Shown here: positions 519-7,793 of the stretch, piece after piece | How positions within the stretch are numbered: position 1 is the stretch's first letter | Layout: each line of letters begins with the position of its first letter | Assembly (NCBI GenBank): GCA_964642305.1 | Contig: CAZXOE010000001.1 | Span: forward strand, 58,917 to 122,916 | Length of the DNA: 64,000 nucleotides | Source of the DNA: an uncultured Candidatus Saccharibacteria bacterium | GTDB lineage: Bacteria > Patescibacteriota > Minisyncoccia > Phycocordibacterales > UBA1550 | Direction: 5' to 3' | Notes under the pieces: model-generated | The model's input: the letters and a program-made list of their open reading frames with translations, nothing else | The model's database searches: none | Told to the model about the DNA's origin: nothing | Translations under genes and position numbers: made by a program

Positions 519-2858
519 ATGAAACTTCGCACAAAATCTATTTTATTTTTTGGAACATTCCTTTTTGTTATAGCGCTTTGCGTTTCTTTTTATGCGCAGT
601 ACGTAGTGGGGAATATTTTTAAGCGCCAAGCAGTGAGCAATCTACGCATTATTGCCGAGCAGAGCGAGAGCGCGTATCTTGCTTTTTTGGGAACAATGAA
701 AACGCGTGTAATAGACTGGACATCAGACACAGGTATGCGAAATATGGCAAAGGCTGTGATGAACGCTCCAAAGGATTCAATTGAAAGGAACAAGGCCTCA
801 AAGGAATTTGGAGATTACGTGTTAAACAAAAAAATGCCTTTTGATGAGACCATCATCATCACAGATCTCCTTGATAAGGATGGAGTTGTTATAGCCTCCT
901 CAAAAAACGAACGCATCGGAAAAAACGAATTGGAGGAGGAAACTGAGCACGGGAAAGTGCATAACATAGAGGACACGCTTAACTCAAAATTTGGCGAGGC
1001 TTTTTTTGGTACGATTGTTCTTGGCGGAGATGAGTATGAAAACCCAACATTCAATGTAACAGTAAGATTTTTTGAGCCAGACGCTCTCGGTGTGAGGGAG
1101 CCACTTGATCTAGTGCTTCTTGTATATTATTCAAATGTTATGCAGATTGCTGAAGTTCTCGGTTCTGGAATTGGCGCCTATGCAGGACTGCCAACTTTTA
1201 TGGGAAGGCTTACGCAGGCCGCGCACCTCGATGAATACGAAACATCAGAGCTTTACTTGGTAAATAATGACAGATATATGGTCACACCATCGCGCTCGGT
1301 GCGAGATGTAACAGTGAAACAAAAGGTTGACACATTGCCAGTACGTGAATGCCTAGAAAATGGAAATGAAATAAATGAGGAATACGACAACTATCTAGGT
1401 GTACGCGTGCTGGGGGCATCAATGTGCTTCCAAGATGAAGGCGTTGTTGTTTTGGTTGAAATTGAAAAAGAAGAAATTTTCGCGCCAATAACAACACTTA
1501 TTCAATCAACCATAATAGGTCTTGCCATCGCCATTATACTAGGATTAGCGATAATTACTTTTTTTATTCGACGCCCGCTTGAGCGCATCAACAATGTCGT
1601 TTTAGTTGCAAAACAGGTTTCAAAGGGCGACATGAACGCGCAGGTAGCAACAGAAGAAAAAGACGAAATAGGGTATCTTGCTACCTCTTTCAACGCAATG
1701 ATTGCGACAATTCGCAATTCACAAAAAGAACTTCGCGCGTCAAAGCACATAGTTGAGAAAGAAAAAGCAAAGGACGAGGCGCTCCTTGCAAGTTTGGGTG
1801 AAGGAATGATTGCCACCGACAAATCGGGGAATATTATCGCAATAAACCGCATGGCAGAAAATATGCTTGATATAACCTCTGCAGAGGTTATCGGGAAAAA
1901 GGCAGTTGATGTAGTGGACGCATTGGACGAAAATGGAGAAGAAATCCCGCCTGAACAACGCTCGTTTTCGTTGGCAACGACAGAGGGGTCAGCAACATCG
2001 GGAACACTGCAATATCGGCGAAAAAACGACGGCTACTTTCCAGTGGCTGTTACCACAACCCCTGTTTTGCTTGAAGAGAAAGTTATTGGCTCCATTAACA
2101 TATTCCGCGACATCACAAGAGAAAAAGAATTGGAAAAAACTCGGATGGACCTTCTTTCACTTGCTTCACACCAGCTACGCACTCCACTCTCTGGCACAAA
2201 GTGGCTCATTGAAACATTAAAAAAAGGTATCCACGGACCTCTCACAGAAGGACAAACAGAGTACATAGATGAACTTTATAAAATTAACGAGCGTATGACT
2301 GGGCTTGTGCATGATATGCTCGGTGTGCTTCGCATGGAAGGAGGCGACACAAAAATAAAAACTGAAAATGTTTCAGTAAAAGCGCTTTTTGCAGATATTT
2401 TTGAAACCGTGCGTGGAGTTGCCGAAAGTAAACATATAAATATAAAGGATTCAATTAGCGAGGATTATAATATAGTAACAGATCCTGTTCTTCTACGAAA
2501 TATTCTTGAAAGTTTGGTTGGTAATGCGATAAATTATTCAAAGTCTGGGAGCGATGTTGAGGTCTTAATTGAGCAAAAACCGTCAGAAATAGTATTCGCC
2601 GTAAAAGATTACGGCATCGGGATTCCAAAAGCAGAACAGAGGCAAATTTTTGAGCGATTCTATCGCGCATCAAACGCAAAAACTTATGATACTCGTGGAA
2701 GCGGCCTCGGGCTGTACATAGCCGCGATGCTCGCAAAGAAAATCGGGGCACGCCTTTCATTTGAATCCGAAGAAGGCAAAGGTTCCACATTTTATGTGCA
2801 CCTTCCTTCTCCACAGGAGGGGGTATTGCCAGGGAATACTACTAGTGTATATAACTAG
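519..2858 (+). CDS. sensor histidine kinase (TM, HAMP, PAS, HisKA, HATPase_c)
   Basis: N-terminal TM helix and large extracytoplasmic region; second TM + HAMP (RPLERINNVVLVAKQVSKGDMNAQV); PAS (GEGMIATDKSGNIIAINRMAENML); H-box LASHQLRTPLSG; ATP-binding G-boxes (DYGIGIP, GSGLGLYIAAMLA). Confidence 0.9.
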   Translation: MKLRTKSILFFGTFLFVIALCVSFYAQYVVGNIFKRQAVSNLRIIAEQSESAYLAFLGTMKTRVIDWTSDTGMRNMAKAVMNAPKDSIERNKASKEFGDYVLNKKMPFDETIIITDLLDKDGVVIASSKNERIGKNELEEETEHGKVHNIEDTLNSKFGEAFFGTIVLGGDEYENPTFNVTVRFFEPDALGVREPLDLVLLVYYSNVMQIAEVLGSGIGAYAGLPTFMGRLTQAAHLDEYETSELYLVNNDRYMVTPSRSVRDVTVKQKVDTLPVRECLENGNEINEEYDNYLGVRVLGASMCFQDEGVVVLVEIEKEEIFAPITTLIQSTIIGLAIAIILGLAIITFFIRRPLERINNVVLVAKQVSKGDMNAQVATEEKDEIGYLATSFNAMIATIRNSQKELRASKHIVEKEKAKDEALLASLGEGMIATDKSGNIIAINRMAENMLDITSAEVIGKKAVDVVDALDENGEEIPPEQRSFSLATTEGSATSGTLQYRRKNDGYFPVAVTTTPVLLEEKVIGSINIFRDITREKELEKTRMDLLSLASHQLRTPLSGTKWLIETLKKGIHGPLTEGQTEYIDELYKINERMTGLVHDMLGVLRMEGGDTKIKTENVSVKALFADIFETVRGVAESKHINIKDSISEDYNIVTDPVLLRNILESLVGNAINYSKSGSDVEVLIEQKPSEIVFAVKDYGIGIPKAEQRQIFERFYRASNAKTYDTRGSGLGLYIAAMLAKKIGARLSFESEEGKGSTFYVHLPSPQEGVLPGNTTSVYN

Positions 2859-2971: not shown

Positions 2972-3364
2972 ATGAACCACGTATTAGTTGTTGAAGATGA
3001 AGATTTCTTGGTTAGGGCGCTAAAGGATAACCTAATTTCAGAAGGGCACAGTGTGTCTGTTGCCACCGACGGTGAGCAAGTTTTTGAGGAGCTAAGAAAA
3101 AAGACACCGAGCCTTATTTTGCTTGACCTTTTACTACCAAAGAAAAACGGGTTTGATGTGCTGAAGGAAATTCGCCAAAGCCCTGAGTGGCAATTAATTC
3201 CAGTAGTAATACTCTCTAATCTCGGCGAGGACTCTGAAATAAAGCGCGCGCTAGAACTAGGCGCAAACGATTACTTCGTAAAGTCACAGCACCCTATTCA
3301 GGAGGTTGTTGAGAAAGTGCGCGAATATTTGCAGGGTAAAGGTTCGACGAAGGCAGGTTTGTAA
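2972..3364 (+). CDS. single-domain response regulator (CheY-like receiver)
   Basis: VLVVEDEDF, phospho-acceptor Asp in LILLDLLLP, conserved T/S and K (VVILSNLG, GANDYFVK). 130 aa, no output domain. Highly similar to the receiver at 39884..40261. Confidence 0.9.
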   Translation: MNHVLVVEDEDFLVRALKDNLISEGHSVSVATDGEQVFEELRKKTPSLILLDLLLPKKNGFDVLKEIRQSPEWQLIPVVILSNLGEDSEIKRALELGANDYFVKSQHPIQEVVEKVREYLQGKGSTKAGL

Positions 3365-3369
3365 AAATA

Positions 3370-3408
3370 GAGGAATGGGGCGAGGGCAAAGCCCTCGCCC
3401 CATTCCTC
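3370..3408 (+). terminator. perfect 18-bp stem-loop (GAGGAATGGGGCGAGGGC aaa GCCCTCGCCCCATTCCTC) right after the receiver gene
   Basis: Perfect inverted repeat seen directly. The downstream T-run is weak (TTGCATAC), so it may be a terminator or an attenuator. Confidence 0.45.
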
Positions 3409-3449
3409 TTGCATACAAGAACCTTCGCAATGTATACTTACATTTAAGT

Positions 3450-6029
3450 ATGCTCTCCTTTTTATCAAAACGAACCACAAAATTTGTTGCTGTCGTTTTT
3501 ATTGTAGTAGGGTTTTTTATTGCTCAAAACATTTCTATTGCCGCAACAGAAACCAGATGGGCAAGCTCGCACATTACAGGTACTTTTACTAACCCAAATA
3601 ATGCGCTTGGCGTGACTAACGGGGTCTGGGCTGGGCAGTTAAATACCAATACGAATCAAACATCGAGGTGGGCAATGGAAAACCCATCGACGTCAATCAC
3701 TGGTACACAAACTATTAATGTCATTGCTCGTAAAGGCTCCAACTCTGCCAATCCTACTATTGCAATCAACCTTTATGAAAATGGGTCGCTAATTCAGTCG
3801 GTTGCTGGAGCAACCTCTATCACCTCTACAACAGGGCAAACCGTTTCTGGAACATTTGACGCTTCAGTAATTACCACACCGGCCAACGTAGAAATCGAGG
3901 TCGTAGGGACTGGCGTAGGAGGAAATGCTTCAACAAGAAACTCAGCTCAAATTGACTCTATAGAGTGGGTTGTAAACCTTGCTCCTACTCCTGTTGTCCC
4001 CACTGTCACCACTCCCACTGTGACATCCATCACCACCACGGGCGCGACACTCGGAGCCAATGTGACATCGCTCGGAATCCCGGCTTCCATCTCGGCGCGC
4101 GGAACTTGCTGGGGAACATCTCCTGCGCCAACAACAAACTGCCTCGTTGCGGGAGGTACTACGACGGGTGTGTTCACGCATGCGAGAACAGGGATGAGCC
4201 CAGGTACCTTTTACTACTACCGTGGCTACGCGACAAACTCCACTGGCACAGGATATTCAGCTGACGGAACATTCACAACAACTGCCAGCGCTTCCGGCTC
4301 AGTCTCCGCATCCCCAAACACCTGTACCATTTCTTCTGGCGCAAGTACGTGTACAGTGCCTTTTACATGGAGCATATCCAACGCAACCTCGCCAAATCTT
4401 TACAACTCCACAACAGCTAACACATATTCAACATCTGCGTCTGGCACGGGGGTTTCGTATCCAATTACAAATGGAGTGAATACTGTGCAAGTGAGAGACA
4501 GCAGCACGGTACTCAACTCAACAACAGCGACGGGAAGTTGTATCACGGGGACGACATGGAACGGGAGTATCTGCGCAGTTGTTGTTATTTATTACGACAT
4601 CTTCGCATCTTCAGGCGCAAACGGAAGTGTCACACCTACCGCCACCACGTCTGTTGCGCAGGGCGGGTCTCAAATTTATTCTATTACTCCTAGCTCTGGA
4701 TACGAGGTCTCGACACTGCTAATAGACAGTAGCCCTATTACAGCATCAACAACCTACACATTCACAAATGTGCAGGCAAACCACACCATCAGCGCGACAT
4801 TCAGTCTCCTGCCTGTCACACACACTATCACTTCGAGCGCAGGTTCAAACGGAACCATTAGCCCGCTCGGAGCCACAGTAGTCGCAGACGGCGCGAATCA
4901 AACATTCAACATTATTCCTGATAGTGGTTTTTATATTTCTACACTAGTGGTTGACGGTAGCGGAATTGCAACATCTACTTCGCACACATTCACAAATGTC
5001 ACGGCAAATCACACGATTTCCGCGACATTCGCTCTTATACCTCCCCCGTCTGGCTCTTTCACAATCATTGCAAACCAAAACCCAAACGGCACAGTGGCGC
5101 CAAGTGGTTCAACTGTTGTGACAGAGGGGTCATCGCAAACATACACAATCACTCCAAGCTCCGGATACGACGTCGGATCAATCATTATTGACAGCACTCC
5201 CCTTTCTTCAACATCCACAAGCTACACATTTACAAACGTCACTGCCGACCACACCATAGAGGCTACATTCACAGCCTTGCCTGGAGCCACTCCAATAATC
5301 AGAGTCCGTAGGCTCGCAAGCATAACATTCCAAGGAAAAGCATTTCCAGAGGGTAAAATTTCTATTGTTCAAAAATCTATTGAAACAGAAACGATCACAG
5401 ACCGCGAAGAAAGAACAGACGCTACAGGATTTTTCCAAATAAGATTCACCGACCTTCAAACTGGCGCGCACAGCTTTGGGTTGCTTATTAAGGATCCGGA
5501 CGGCAGAACATCTCAAACAAAATTCTTTGTTGTTGATGTGAGCAGGGGTGACGAAATTTTTAAGGACATAGTCGCTCCACCTACTGTTGATATTCTGAAC
5601 GGTCAGGTATCAAGGGGTGGAAATCTAAAGGTTTTTGGTTATGCATCACCAAGCCATACCATTCGTGTATATATTAATGATATACTGTCTAAAGAGGCGC
5701 TTGCTGGGCGCGGAGGGGTGTACTCTTTTGACATACCTACAGGAGCGTTGCCATTTGGACAGCACAAGGTTAGGGTAAAACAAATTAACCTTGATGGTGG
5801 GAAGGAAAGCGATTTTTCAACAGAAAGAACATTTATGGTTTCAAAGCTCACGGTTGTGAAAGCCGACTTCTCAGGCGATGGTAAAATTGATATCAGGGAT
5901 TGGAGTATCTTTCTCGCTCGCTGGGGCGCAAAAAACTCCCTAGGAAGAGAGAGCATTGATCTTAACAGCGATGGGAAGATTGATATATCAGACTTTAGCA
6001 TATTCATTAAAACAATTAGAAAAAAATAA
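3450..6029 (+). CDS. large secreted Thr/Ser-rich surface protein with Fn3-like region, three InlB-B-repeat-like Ig domains, Big-like domains and a C-terminal type-I dockerin
   Basis: ORF-track start at 3306 overlaps the receiver gene. The ATG at 3450 (MLSFLSKRTTKFVAVVFIVVGFF) gives a signal/anchor peptide. Three ~65-aa repeats end in YTFTNV(T/Q)A(N/D)HTI(S/E)ATF. The C-terminus DFSGDGKIDIRDWSIFLARW...DLNSDGKIDISDFSIFIKTI is two calcium-loop dockerin segments (D-x-N/S-x-D-G-K-I-D-x-x-D). Confidence 0.8.
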   Translation: MLSFLSKRTTKFVAVVFIVVGFFIAQNISIAATETRWASSHITGTFTNPNNALGVTNGVWAGQLNTNTNQTSRWAMENPSTSITGTQTINVIARKGSNSANPTIAINLYENGSLIQSVAGATSITSTTGQTVSGTFDASVITTPANVEIEVVGTGVGGNASTRNSAQIDSIEWVVNLAPTPVVPTVTTPTVTSITTTGATLGANVTSLGIPASISARGTCWGTSPAPTTNCLVAGGTTTGVFTHARTGMSPGTFYYYRGYATNSTGTGYSADGTFTTTASASGSVSASPNTCTISSGASTCTVPFTWSISNATSPNLYNSTTANTYSTSASGTGVSYPITNGVNTVQVRDSSTVLNSTTATGSCITGTTWNGSICAVVVIYYDIFASSGANGSVTPTATTSVAQGGSQIYSITPSSGYEVSTLLIDSSPITASTTYTFTNVQANHTISATFSLLPVTHTITSSAGSNGTISPLGATVVADGANQTFNIIPDSGFYISTLVVDGSGIATSTSHTFTNVTANHTISATFALIPPPSGSFTIIANQNPNGTVAPSGSTVVTEGSSQTYTITPSSGYDVGSIIIDSTPLSSTSTSYTFTNVTADHTIEATFTALPGATPIIRVRRLASITFQGKAFPEGKISIVQKSIETETITDREERTDATGFFQIRFTDLQTGAHSFGLLIKDPDGRTSQTKFFVVDVSRGDEIFKDIVAPPTVDILNGQVSRGGNLKVFGYASPSHTIRVYINDILSKEALAGRGGVYSFDIPTGALPFGQHKVRVKQINLDGGKESDFSTERTFMVSKLTVVKADFSGDGKIDIRDWSIFLARWGAKNSLGRESIDLNSDGKIDISDFSIFIKTIRKK

Positions 6030-6030
6030 A

Positions 6031-7701
6031 ATGTTACGAATACCACTTACAATCATATTAGGAGTTATCTTATTTTTTGCAGGCACAGCTCAAGCTGCCA
6101 CACTTTTTTTTACGCCTGGAACCGGCGAATTTGGTCTAGACAAAGAAATCGTTGTTGATTTAAAAATTGACAGCGAGAGTGTGGGTGTGAACGCGGGCCA
6201 GGCAACGATCCGCTTTCCAAAGGAAATGCTTGAAGTAAAGTCCGTGGATAAAACAGACTCTGTATTCAACTTTTGGCTTGAAGAACCGTCATTTTCAAAC
6301 ACTGACGGCGTGATAACATTTGTTGGCGGGACTCCATACGGCATTTCTGGGGCATCTATCAATGTTCTTCGTATTACTTTTACAACAAAAAGCACTGGTA
6401 CTGCCGTGCTATCATTTGCAGATAGCGCTGTTACAGCGTCCGACGGAAGCGGAACCAATGTGTTGTCCAAATCAAAAGAGGCTGGATTCACAATTACGGG
6501 AGAAACTGTTCCTCCCGTGATCACGCCTCCAACACAAATCAAAAGGGAACCAGCGCCTGCAGTCGGATTGCCAGCAAAACCTGTAGTAAGCGTGTCACTT
6601 TATTCCAACCCAGCGGAATGGTATGGTCATTCCAATGCCTTCACCACAACATGGGCGCTTCCATTAGATGTTTCTTATGTGGCTACTGCTCTAAATAAAC
6701 AACCAAATTATACTCCATCTGTAAAAGAGGGACTCTTTGACAACAAGATGTATCAAGCGCTTTCTGACGGTATTTGGTATCTTCATGTGCGGTTCCAAAA
6801 CGACATTGGATGGGGTCCCACCACCCACTACCGCCTGGCAGTGGACACAAAAACTCCGCTTCCTTTTGAGATTACCTCAAACGAAAGTGAAACAACTGAT
6901 AATCCAACACCAGAGTTTGTTTTTAAAACAAACGACGCTCTGTCTGGTATGCGTGAATATAGAGCGCGAGTTGACAACGAAAACTGGATAACAATTCCCG
7001 CAAAGGACTTCAAGGGGTCATACAAGCTAGCACCACAAAATCCGGGAAAACACCATTTAACAATCCGAGCGGTAGACAACGCAGGTAATAGTATAGAAAA
7101 TACATTTGACTACGAAACGATTCCGCTCGCATTGCCAACCTTTACTTTTGTTACTGACAAACTTTTCTCGGACACCACGGCAGGATTGTCATTCAATGGA
7201 ACAGCGTTGCCATCCACTGAAATACTCTTTGTGCTTAAAAAAGGAGATGCTGTTATTACAAACAACACGATAAAGGTAGACAGTAGCGGTAACTGGGCGT
7301 TCACATATGGCGAGTCACTCCGCAATGGTCGCTACATTGCAACAATTCAAAACATGGACGCTCGCGGAGCGCTTTCACTTATTATCATGGCGCCGGAGAT
7401 TGTAGTTACAGGAAGGTACACCACTGCAGTAACAACCTTAGTTATCATACTTATTGGCGCGCTTTTTGGAGGGTTTTGGTTTTATGAGCGACGTCGTGAG
7501 CGAACAAAACTTCGCATTCAAGTAGCAGAGAGAGACGCTGCAAATGTATTTAACATGATTAAGACTGACGTTGAAAAACTTGAGGACGCGCAGAAAACGT
7601 CTACTCCCGCTGATGATCAGTTCATTGCAGACAAACTGAAAAAGAACGTAGATAAAATGGGTTCGTATGTGAAGGACACGATTGGCAGGGCGAGGGAGTA
7701 G
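6031..7701 (+). CDS. cell-surface protein with N-terminal cohesin-like domain, signal peptide and C-terminal TM anchor
   Basis: ATG at 6031 (MLRIPLTIILGVILFFAGTAQA) is 2 nt after the upstream stop. Residues ~30-150 (GEFGLDKEIVVDLKIDSESVGVNAGQATIRFPKEMLEVKSV...DGVITFVGGTPYGISGASINVLRITFTTKSTGTAVLSF) match the cohesin beta-sandwich pattern. C-terminal hydrophobic helix AVTTLVIILIGALFGGFWFY precedes a charged tail. Confidence 0.75.
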   Translation: MLRIPLTIILGVILFFAGTAQAATLFFTPGTGEFGLDKEIVVDLKIDSESVGVNAGQATIRFPKEMLEVKSVDKTDSVFNFWLEEPSFSNTDGVITFVGGTPYGISGASINVLRITFTTKSTGTAVLSFADSAVTASDGSGTNVLSKSKEAGFTITGETVPPVITPPTQIKREPAPAVGLPAKPVVSVSLYSNPAEWYGHSNAFTTTWALPLDVSYVATALNKQPNYTPSVKEGLFDNKMYQALSDGIWYLHVRFQNDIGWGPTTHYRLAVDTKTPLPFEITSNESETTDNPTPEFVFKTNDALSGMREYRARVDNENWITIPAKDFKGSYKLAPQNPGKHHLTIRAVDNAGNSIENTFDYETIPLALPTFTFVTDKLFSDTTAGLSFNGTALPSTEILFVLKKGDAVITNNTIKVDSSGNWAFTYGESLRNGRYIATIQNMDARGALSLIIMAPEIVVTGRYTTAVTTLVIILIGALFGGFWFYERRRERTKLRIQVAERDAANVFNMIKTDVEKLEDAQKTSTPADDQFIADKLKKNVDKMGSYVKDTIGRARE

Positions 7702-7757
7702 TTGCGACAAAGTCGCACATGTGACAATTAACAATTGACATTTGACTTGAATACAAA

Positions 7758-7790
7758 AGAGAGGGTTTGCGCGAAGCGCAAACCCTCTCT
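7758..7790. terminator. bidirectional hairpin (AGAGAGGGTTTGCGC gaa GCGCAAACCCTCTCT) between convergent cohesin and SET genes
   Basis: Perfect 15-bp inverted repeat followed by TTTGTCAGTTGTTAGTTGTTTTTCC on +. An A-rich tract precedes it on +, which reads as T-rich for the minus-strand gene. Confidence 0.55.
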
Positions 7791-7793
7791 TTG

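Follow-up and report, generated by a model that had tools for sequence, protein, structure and literature searches.

A conserved dockerin–cohesin gene pair points to a two-component cell-surface complex with a variable outer protein in Parcubacteria

Introduction

Type I cohesin–dockerin pairs have been described from clostridial cellulosomes, for example CaCohA2-Doc0917 of Clostridium acetobutylicum, OlpC-Doc435 and CipA-Xyn10B of C. thermocellum, and those of C. cellulolyticum. Non-cellulosomal modules include a cohesin of Archaeoglobus fulgidus (2xdh) and, from the toxin complexes of Clostridium perfringens, the NagJ cohesin (2o4e, 2w1n) and the NagH dockerin (2jnk, 2ozn). In Ruminococcus flavefaciens, the non-enzymatic adhesin CttA is fixed to the surface via a C-terminal dockerin that follows an Ig-like module; this X-module-dockerin binds the cohesin of ScaE, a cell-anchored protein with a single cohesin (PDB 4iu2, 4iu3). 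Attachment work has so far centred on the type IV pili of Saccharibacteria. In the epibiotic Saccharibacterium Southlakia epibionticum, the dockerin-domain envelope protein SEML1_0315 is essential, and a role in host adhesion or glycan targeting has been suggested for it (Wang et al., 2023, PMC10633639). A full-text literature search found no paper that pairs dockerin with any Parcubacteria lineage name.

Here we analyze a 64-kb stretch of DNA (the window) from the genome of an ultra-small member of the Parcubacteria (Candidatus Yonathbacteria) in which a gene for a secreted dockerin protein (A) adjoins a gene for a membrane-anchored cohesin protein (B). We put the probability that the two products form a two-component cell-surface complex displaying the variable ectodomain of A at about 0.7.

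Results and Discussion

Comparison with described systems

The locus differs from clostridial cellulosomes in several respects. It holds neither glycoside hydrolases nor carbohydrate-binding modules, and the absence of glycoside hydrolases noted in the first-pass annotation applies to the 10 kb around it. B has a single cohesin and is not a multi-cohesin scaffoldin, the window contains one dockerin only, and the cargo protein A is built of InlB B-repeat and Ig-like domains alone. No SLH domain or LPXTG signal was found with Pfam or NCBIfam; the end of B is formed by a transmembrane helix with a tail on the cytoplasmic side, instead of the SLH domains or sortase signal of anchored scaffoldins. 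The host is a CPR bacterium and not a cellulolytic Firmicute. Unlike B, the A. fulgidus and C. perfringens modules reside on enzymes or soluble proteins, and none of them is known as a stalk protein with a membrane anchor whose gene shares a conserved operon with that of its dockerin partner and a kinase–receiver pair. CttA–ScaE is the nearest counterpart in logic: there, an adhesin with an Ig-like module and a C-terminal dockerin is joined to a single-cohesin anchor. Going by its description, SEML1_0315 resembles A in being a dockerin-bearing envelope protein of a CPR bacterium; it belongs to another CPR class, and that description names no cohesin partner, operon or two-component link (PMC10633639).

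A secreted protein with a C-terminal dockerin

Gene A (3450..6029, on the plus strand like all genes and domains below) encodes a surface protein of 859 residues. From the ATG at 3450 it begins MLSFLSKRTTKFVAVVFIVVGFFIAQNISIAA, followed by the cleavage site and TE, and apart from this signal peptide (residues 1-32) the protein has no anchor; the open reading frame is present as first described. In the ectodomain (3546..5249), an N-terminal domain and a Cys-containing one are accompanied by three units of the InlB B-repeat, matched by Pfam Flg_new_2 in three stretches (E 3e-15). It diverges faster than the C-terminus of A, and other domains substitute for it in other lineages, such as nine TIG domains at locus L033. 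The Ig-like modules that precede the dockerin (5250..5861) are conserved in every homologue of A, with phmmer E values from 1e-9 to 1e-143; their Pfam matches, to Big_6, Big_13 and Big_7, are only weak. Owing to the word index, a search with the C-terminal 259 residues of A returned 13 proteins only, and a comparison of dockerin and cohesin gene numbers based on this search was dropped for that reason.

The dockerin module itself (residues 805-856; 5862..6017) consists of two 12-residue calcium loops, DFSGDGKIDIRD (residues 806-817) and DLNSDGKIDISD (residues 837-848), each with a [WF]SIF helix behind it. The resulting segments, DFSGDGKIDIRD-WSIFLARW (residues 806-825) and DLNSDGKIDISD-FSIFIKTI (residues 837-856), show the tandem arrangement of type I dockerins, in which segments of ~22 residues are formed by a 12-residue loop D-x-[DN]-x-D-G-x-x-[DN]-x-x-D and a helix. 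No other such loops occur in any of the six frames of the window. With the Dockerin_1 family HMM (PF00404; Pfam gathering score 22.9), whole A scored 25.5 bits and the isolated tail 36.6 bits (E 5e-9), bearing out the two canonical loops that had been read at the end of the protein. Dockerin_1 matched all 71 orthologous tails at E<=0.01 (best E 2e-12), more than any other family did, and both loops were present in 71 of 73 orthologues with invariant acidic positions. The loop aspartates of A include D806, D810, D837 and D841; lineages whose dockerins diverge are represented by loci such as L046 and L071. A profile of the tails searched against the PDB retrieved the solved dockerins 4fl4, 2y3n_B, 1daq and 2vn6_B. 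EF-hand proteins ranked beside them, and the tail also matches EF-hand families, which counts against the complex.

A membrane-anchored cohesin protein

Gene B (6031..7701) starts with an ATG one base past the stop codon of A, so that the two genes are indeed back to back, and encodes a type I membrane protein of 556 residues. All those of its 778 homologues that have a source name are labelled as Parcubacteria/Patescibacteria lineages. The signal peptide, with cleavage at AQA|A, and the C-terminal transmembrane anchor (residues ~464-487) are present as first described. The cohesin domain is assigned to residues 23-157 (6097..6501), and the segment that had been quoted as a cohesin pattern is present. 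Searches of B by sequence against solved structures, with the single sequence or a 30-member profile, gave nothing meaningful, and Foldseek with the full-length model was uninformative, as multi-Ig arrays dominated the output. Modelled by itself for this reason, the N-terminal domain has the nine-stranded beta-sandwich (jelly-roll) of cohesins, in agreement with the fold first suggested for it. Conservation is higher in the strands assigned to the 8-3-6-5 sheet, with which cohesins bind dockerins, than in the opposite sheet.

The first-pass assignment of a cohesin to B is upheld in its fold, but the B of the window gave no direct match to Pfam Cohesin (PF00963) at E<=1, a second point against the complex. 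Such a match was obtained for 7 of 30 B orthologues, and three exceed the gathering score of 24.1: P0057 (57% identical) with 30.5 bits, P0073 with 28.7 and P0097 with 24.7. It is very unlikely that the likeness is architectural only, with the C-terminal repeats of A acting as a calcium-dependent, EF-hand-like stabiliser and the N-terminal domain of B as a generic beta-sandwich, and with no plug and socket between them.

Behind the cohesin, the full-length model and Pfam place a stalk (6502..7416) in which a proline-rich linker (residues 158-203) leads to three Ig-like domains (residues 204-462; Big_13, E 3e-11). Conservation within B peaks in the first Ig-like domain and not in the cohesin, so that B may have a further conserved partner; this, too, counts against the complex. 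A weak Y_Y_Y match in B orthologues, considered as a sensor-type link, was dropped as lying below threshold (16.4 bits vs 26.6; it falls in the second Ig-like domain). The transmembrane helix and the cytoplasmic tail (residues 488-556) occupy 7420..7698; ERRRERTK, which is positively charged, follows the membrane helix, and the full-length model has helices at residues 464-520 and 528-555.

Conservation of the gene pair

The A–B pair stands beside a two-component sensor in ~70 related genomes. At 68 of 71 loci the dockerin gene directly precedes the cohesin gene, only a few bases away from it, and the two modules show joint conservation against a varying remainder of A. This supports the cognate cohesin–dockerin reading of the first-pass annotation. 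It also makes it unlikely that the modules are genuine but not mutual partners, their adjacency reflecting a shared envelope function only. The cohesin of B would then take the dockerins of other proteins, or the dockerin of A would bind another cohesin or a glycan, which we judge to be similarly improbable. In favor of such an arrangement, the cohesin domain of B has a great many relatives (5160 cluster representatives, among them short and two-cohesin forms; 2342 at E<=1e-10 with the cohesin domain alone), one locus (L059) has a further gene whose C-terminus is of the A type, and at another (L025) no dockerin gene adjoins B, which counts against the pairing and the complex. Against it stand the conserved order and joint conservation of the two modules, and the dockerin of A is the only one in the window.

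In the two-component complex that we prefer, B is exported, stays in the membrane through one C-terminal helix and carries the cohesin at the tip of the stalk. A, secreted without an anchor of its own, would plug its calcium-binding dockerin into this cohesin, probably in a calcium-dependent manner, and its ectodomain would thereby be displayed beyond the envelope. On display would be InlB B-repeats together with further Ig-like domains in this genome, and TIG arrays or different domains in its relatives. The analysis shows the identity of the domains, the membrane topology and the conserved pairing of the genes; binding, its calcium dependence and an adhesive role are inferred. Because socket and plug are conserved and the outer part changes fast, the complex fits a recognition or adhesion device of ultra-small, probably host-dependent bacteria.

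For the attachment and partner recognition of the very abundant, mostly uncultivated Parcubacteria, the pair is a concrete, testable candidate, namely a conserved cohesin socket on a membrane stalk and a dockerin plug that would present a rapidly varying outer protein. In reduced genomes, cohesin–dockerin biology would gain a context that is membrane-anchored, non-enzymatic and linked to signalling. Both modules are small, and direct expression and a binding assay are feasible.

Link to the upstream signalling genes

Pfam domains bore out the two signalling genes that had been placed directly upstream of A. The histidine kinase (519..2858; 779 residues) has a transmembrane helix, an extracellular part of ~300 residues, a second transmembrane helix, and HAMP, PAS, HisKA and HATPase_c domains. 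The response regulator (2972..3364; 130 residues) is receiver-only: Response_reg (84 bits) is its sole Pfam domain, E8-D9, D52, S82 and K104 stand at the positions usual for receivers, and an output domain is lacking. Receivers flanking the pair at other loci are also short (~120-146 residues). A homologue of the kinase catalytic core adjoins the pair at most related loci, its sensor parts ranging from membrane-bound to soluble, and a receiver-only gene flanks it at 45 of 47 assessable loci, in the order kinase-receiver-A-B or A-B-receiver-kinase. We conclude that a functional link ties the A–B pair to the kinase and the receiver-only regulator, and that it does not run via direct DNA binding by the receiver. 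Regulated expression had been suggested for the locus; the functional link stands, whereas classical two-component transcriptional control, in which such a kinase acts through a receiver with a DNA-binding output domain, is not what these genes encode.

It is unlikely that kinase, receiver, A and B work as a single unit for surface sensing and signalling, with the A–B complex as the extracellular input or the output of the kinase and the CheY-like receiver. In such a unit the receiver would act on the cytoplasmic tail of B by protein–protein contact, in an integrin-like outside-in or inside-out fashion, and not transcriptionally. The recurrent receiver gene in two gene orders, its lack of an output domain, the kinase association that persists while sensor parts vary, and the helical tail of ~69 residues in all B orthologues are consistent with this idea. 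However, the tail is less conserved than the cohesin (mean major-residue frequency 0.42 vs 0.61 in 70 genomes), a moderate level at which a strongly conserved docking site for the receiver was rejected; no known motif for receiver binding was found; and in the clade of the window a strong hairpin stands between the receiver gene and A. Signalling of this kind would add to the cohesin–dockerin complex, not replace it. That kinase, receiver, dockerin protein and cohesin anchor are one conserved Parcubacteria-wide machine, coupling a modularly exchangeable host-recognition adhesin, assembled through cohesin and dockerin, to phosphorylation signalling via the cytoplasmic tail of the anchor, is unlikely. 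If true, bacteria would have an equivalent of integrin-type adhesion signalling, and the machine would be the chief means by which a large uncultivated group attaches to or senses its hosts.

Hairpins and transcription signals

The gap between the receiver gene and A contains a perfect 19-bp GC-rich hairpin (3369..3409). The terminator hairpin proposed there is thus present as a structure, but its T-run is on the minus-strand side only, with none on the plus strand. Strong hairpins of different sequence occupy the same position at loci of the Yonathbacteria clade (L001, L006, L007, L009, L010, L012, L013 and L023). A scan of the DNA for sigma-70 promoters yielded no more sites than shuffled sequence. 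A further hairpin, AAAGAGAGGGTTTGCGC-GAA-GCGCAAACCCTCTCTTT, lies between B and a convergent SET-domain gene (7757..7793) and, judged from its sequence, is likely a bidirectional terminator that closes the A–B unit.

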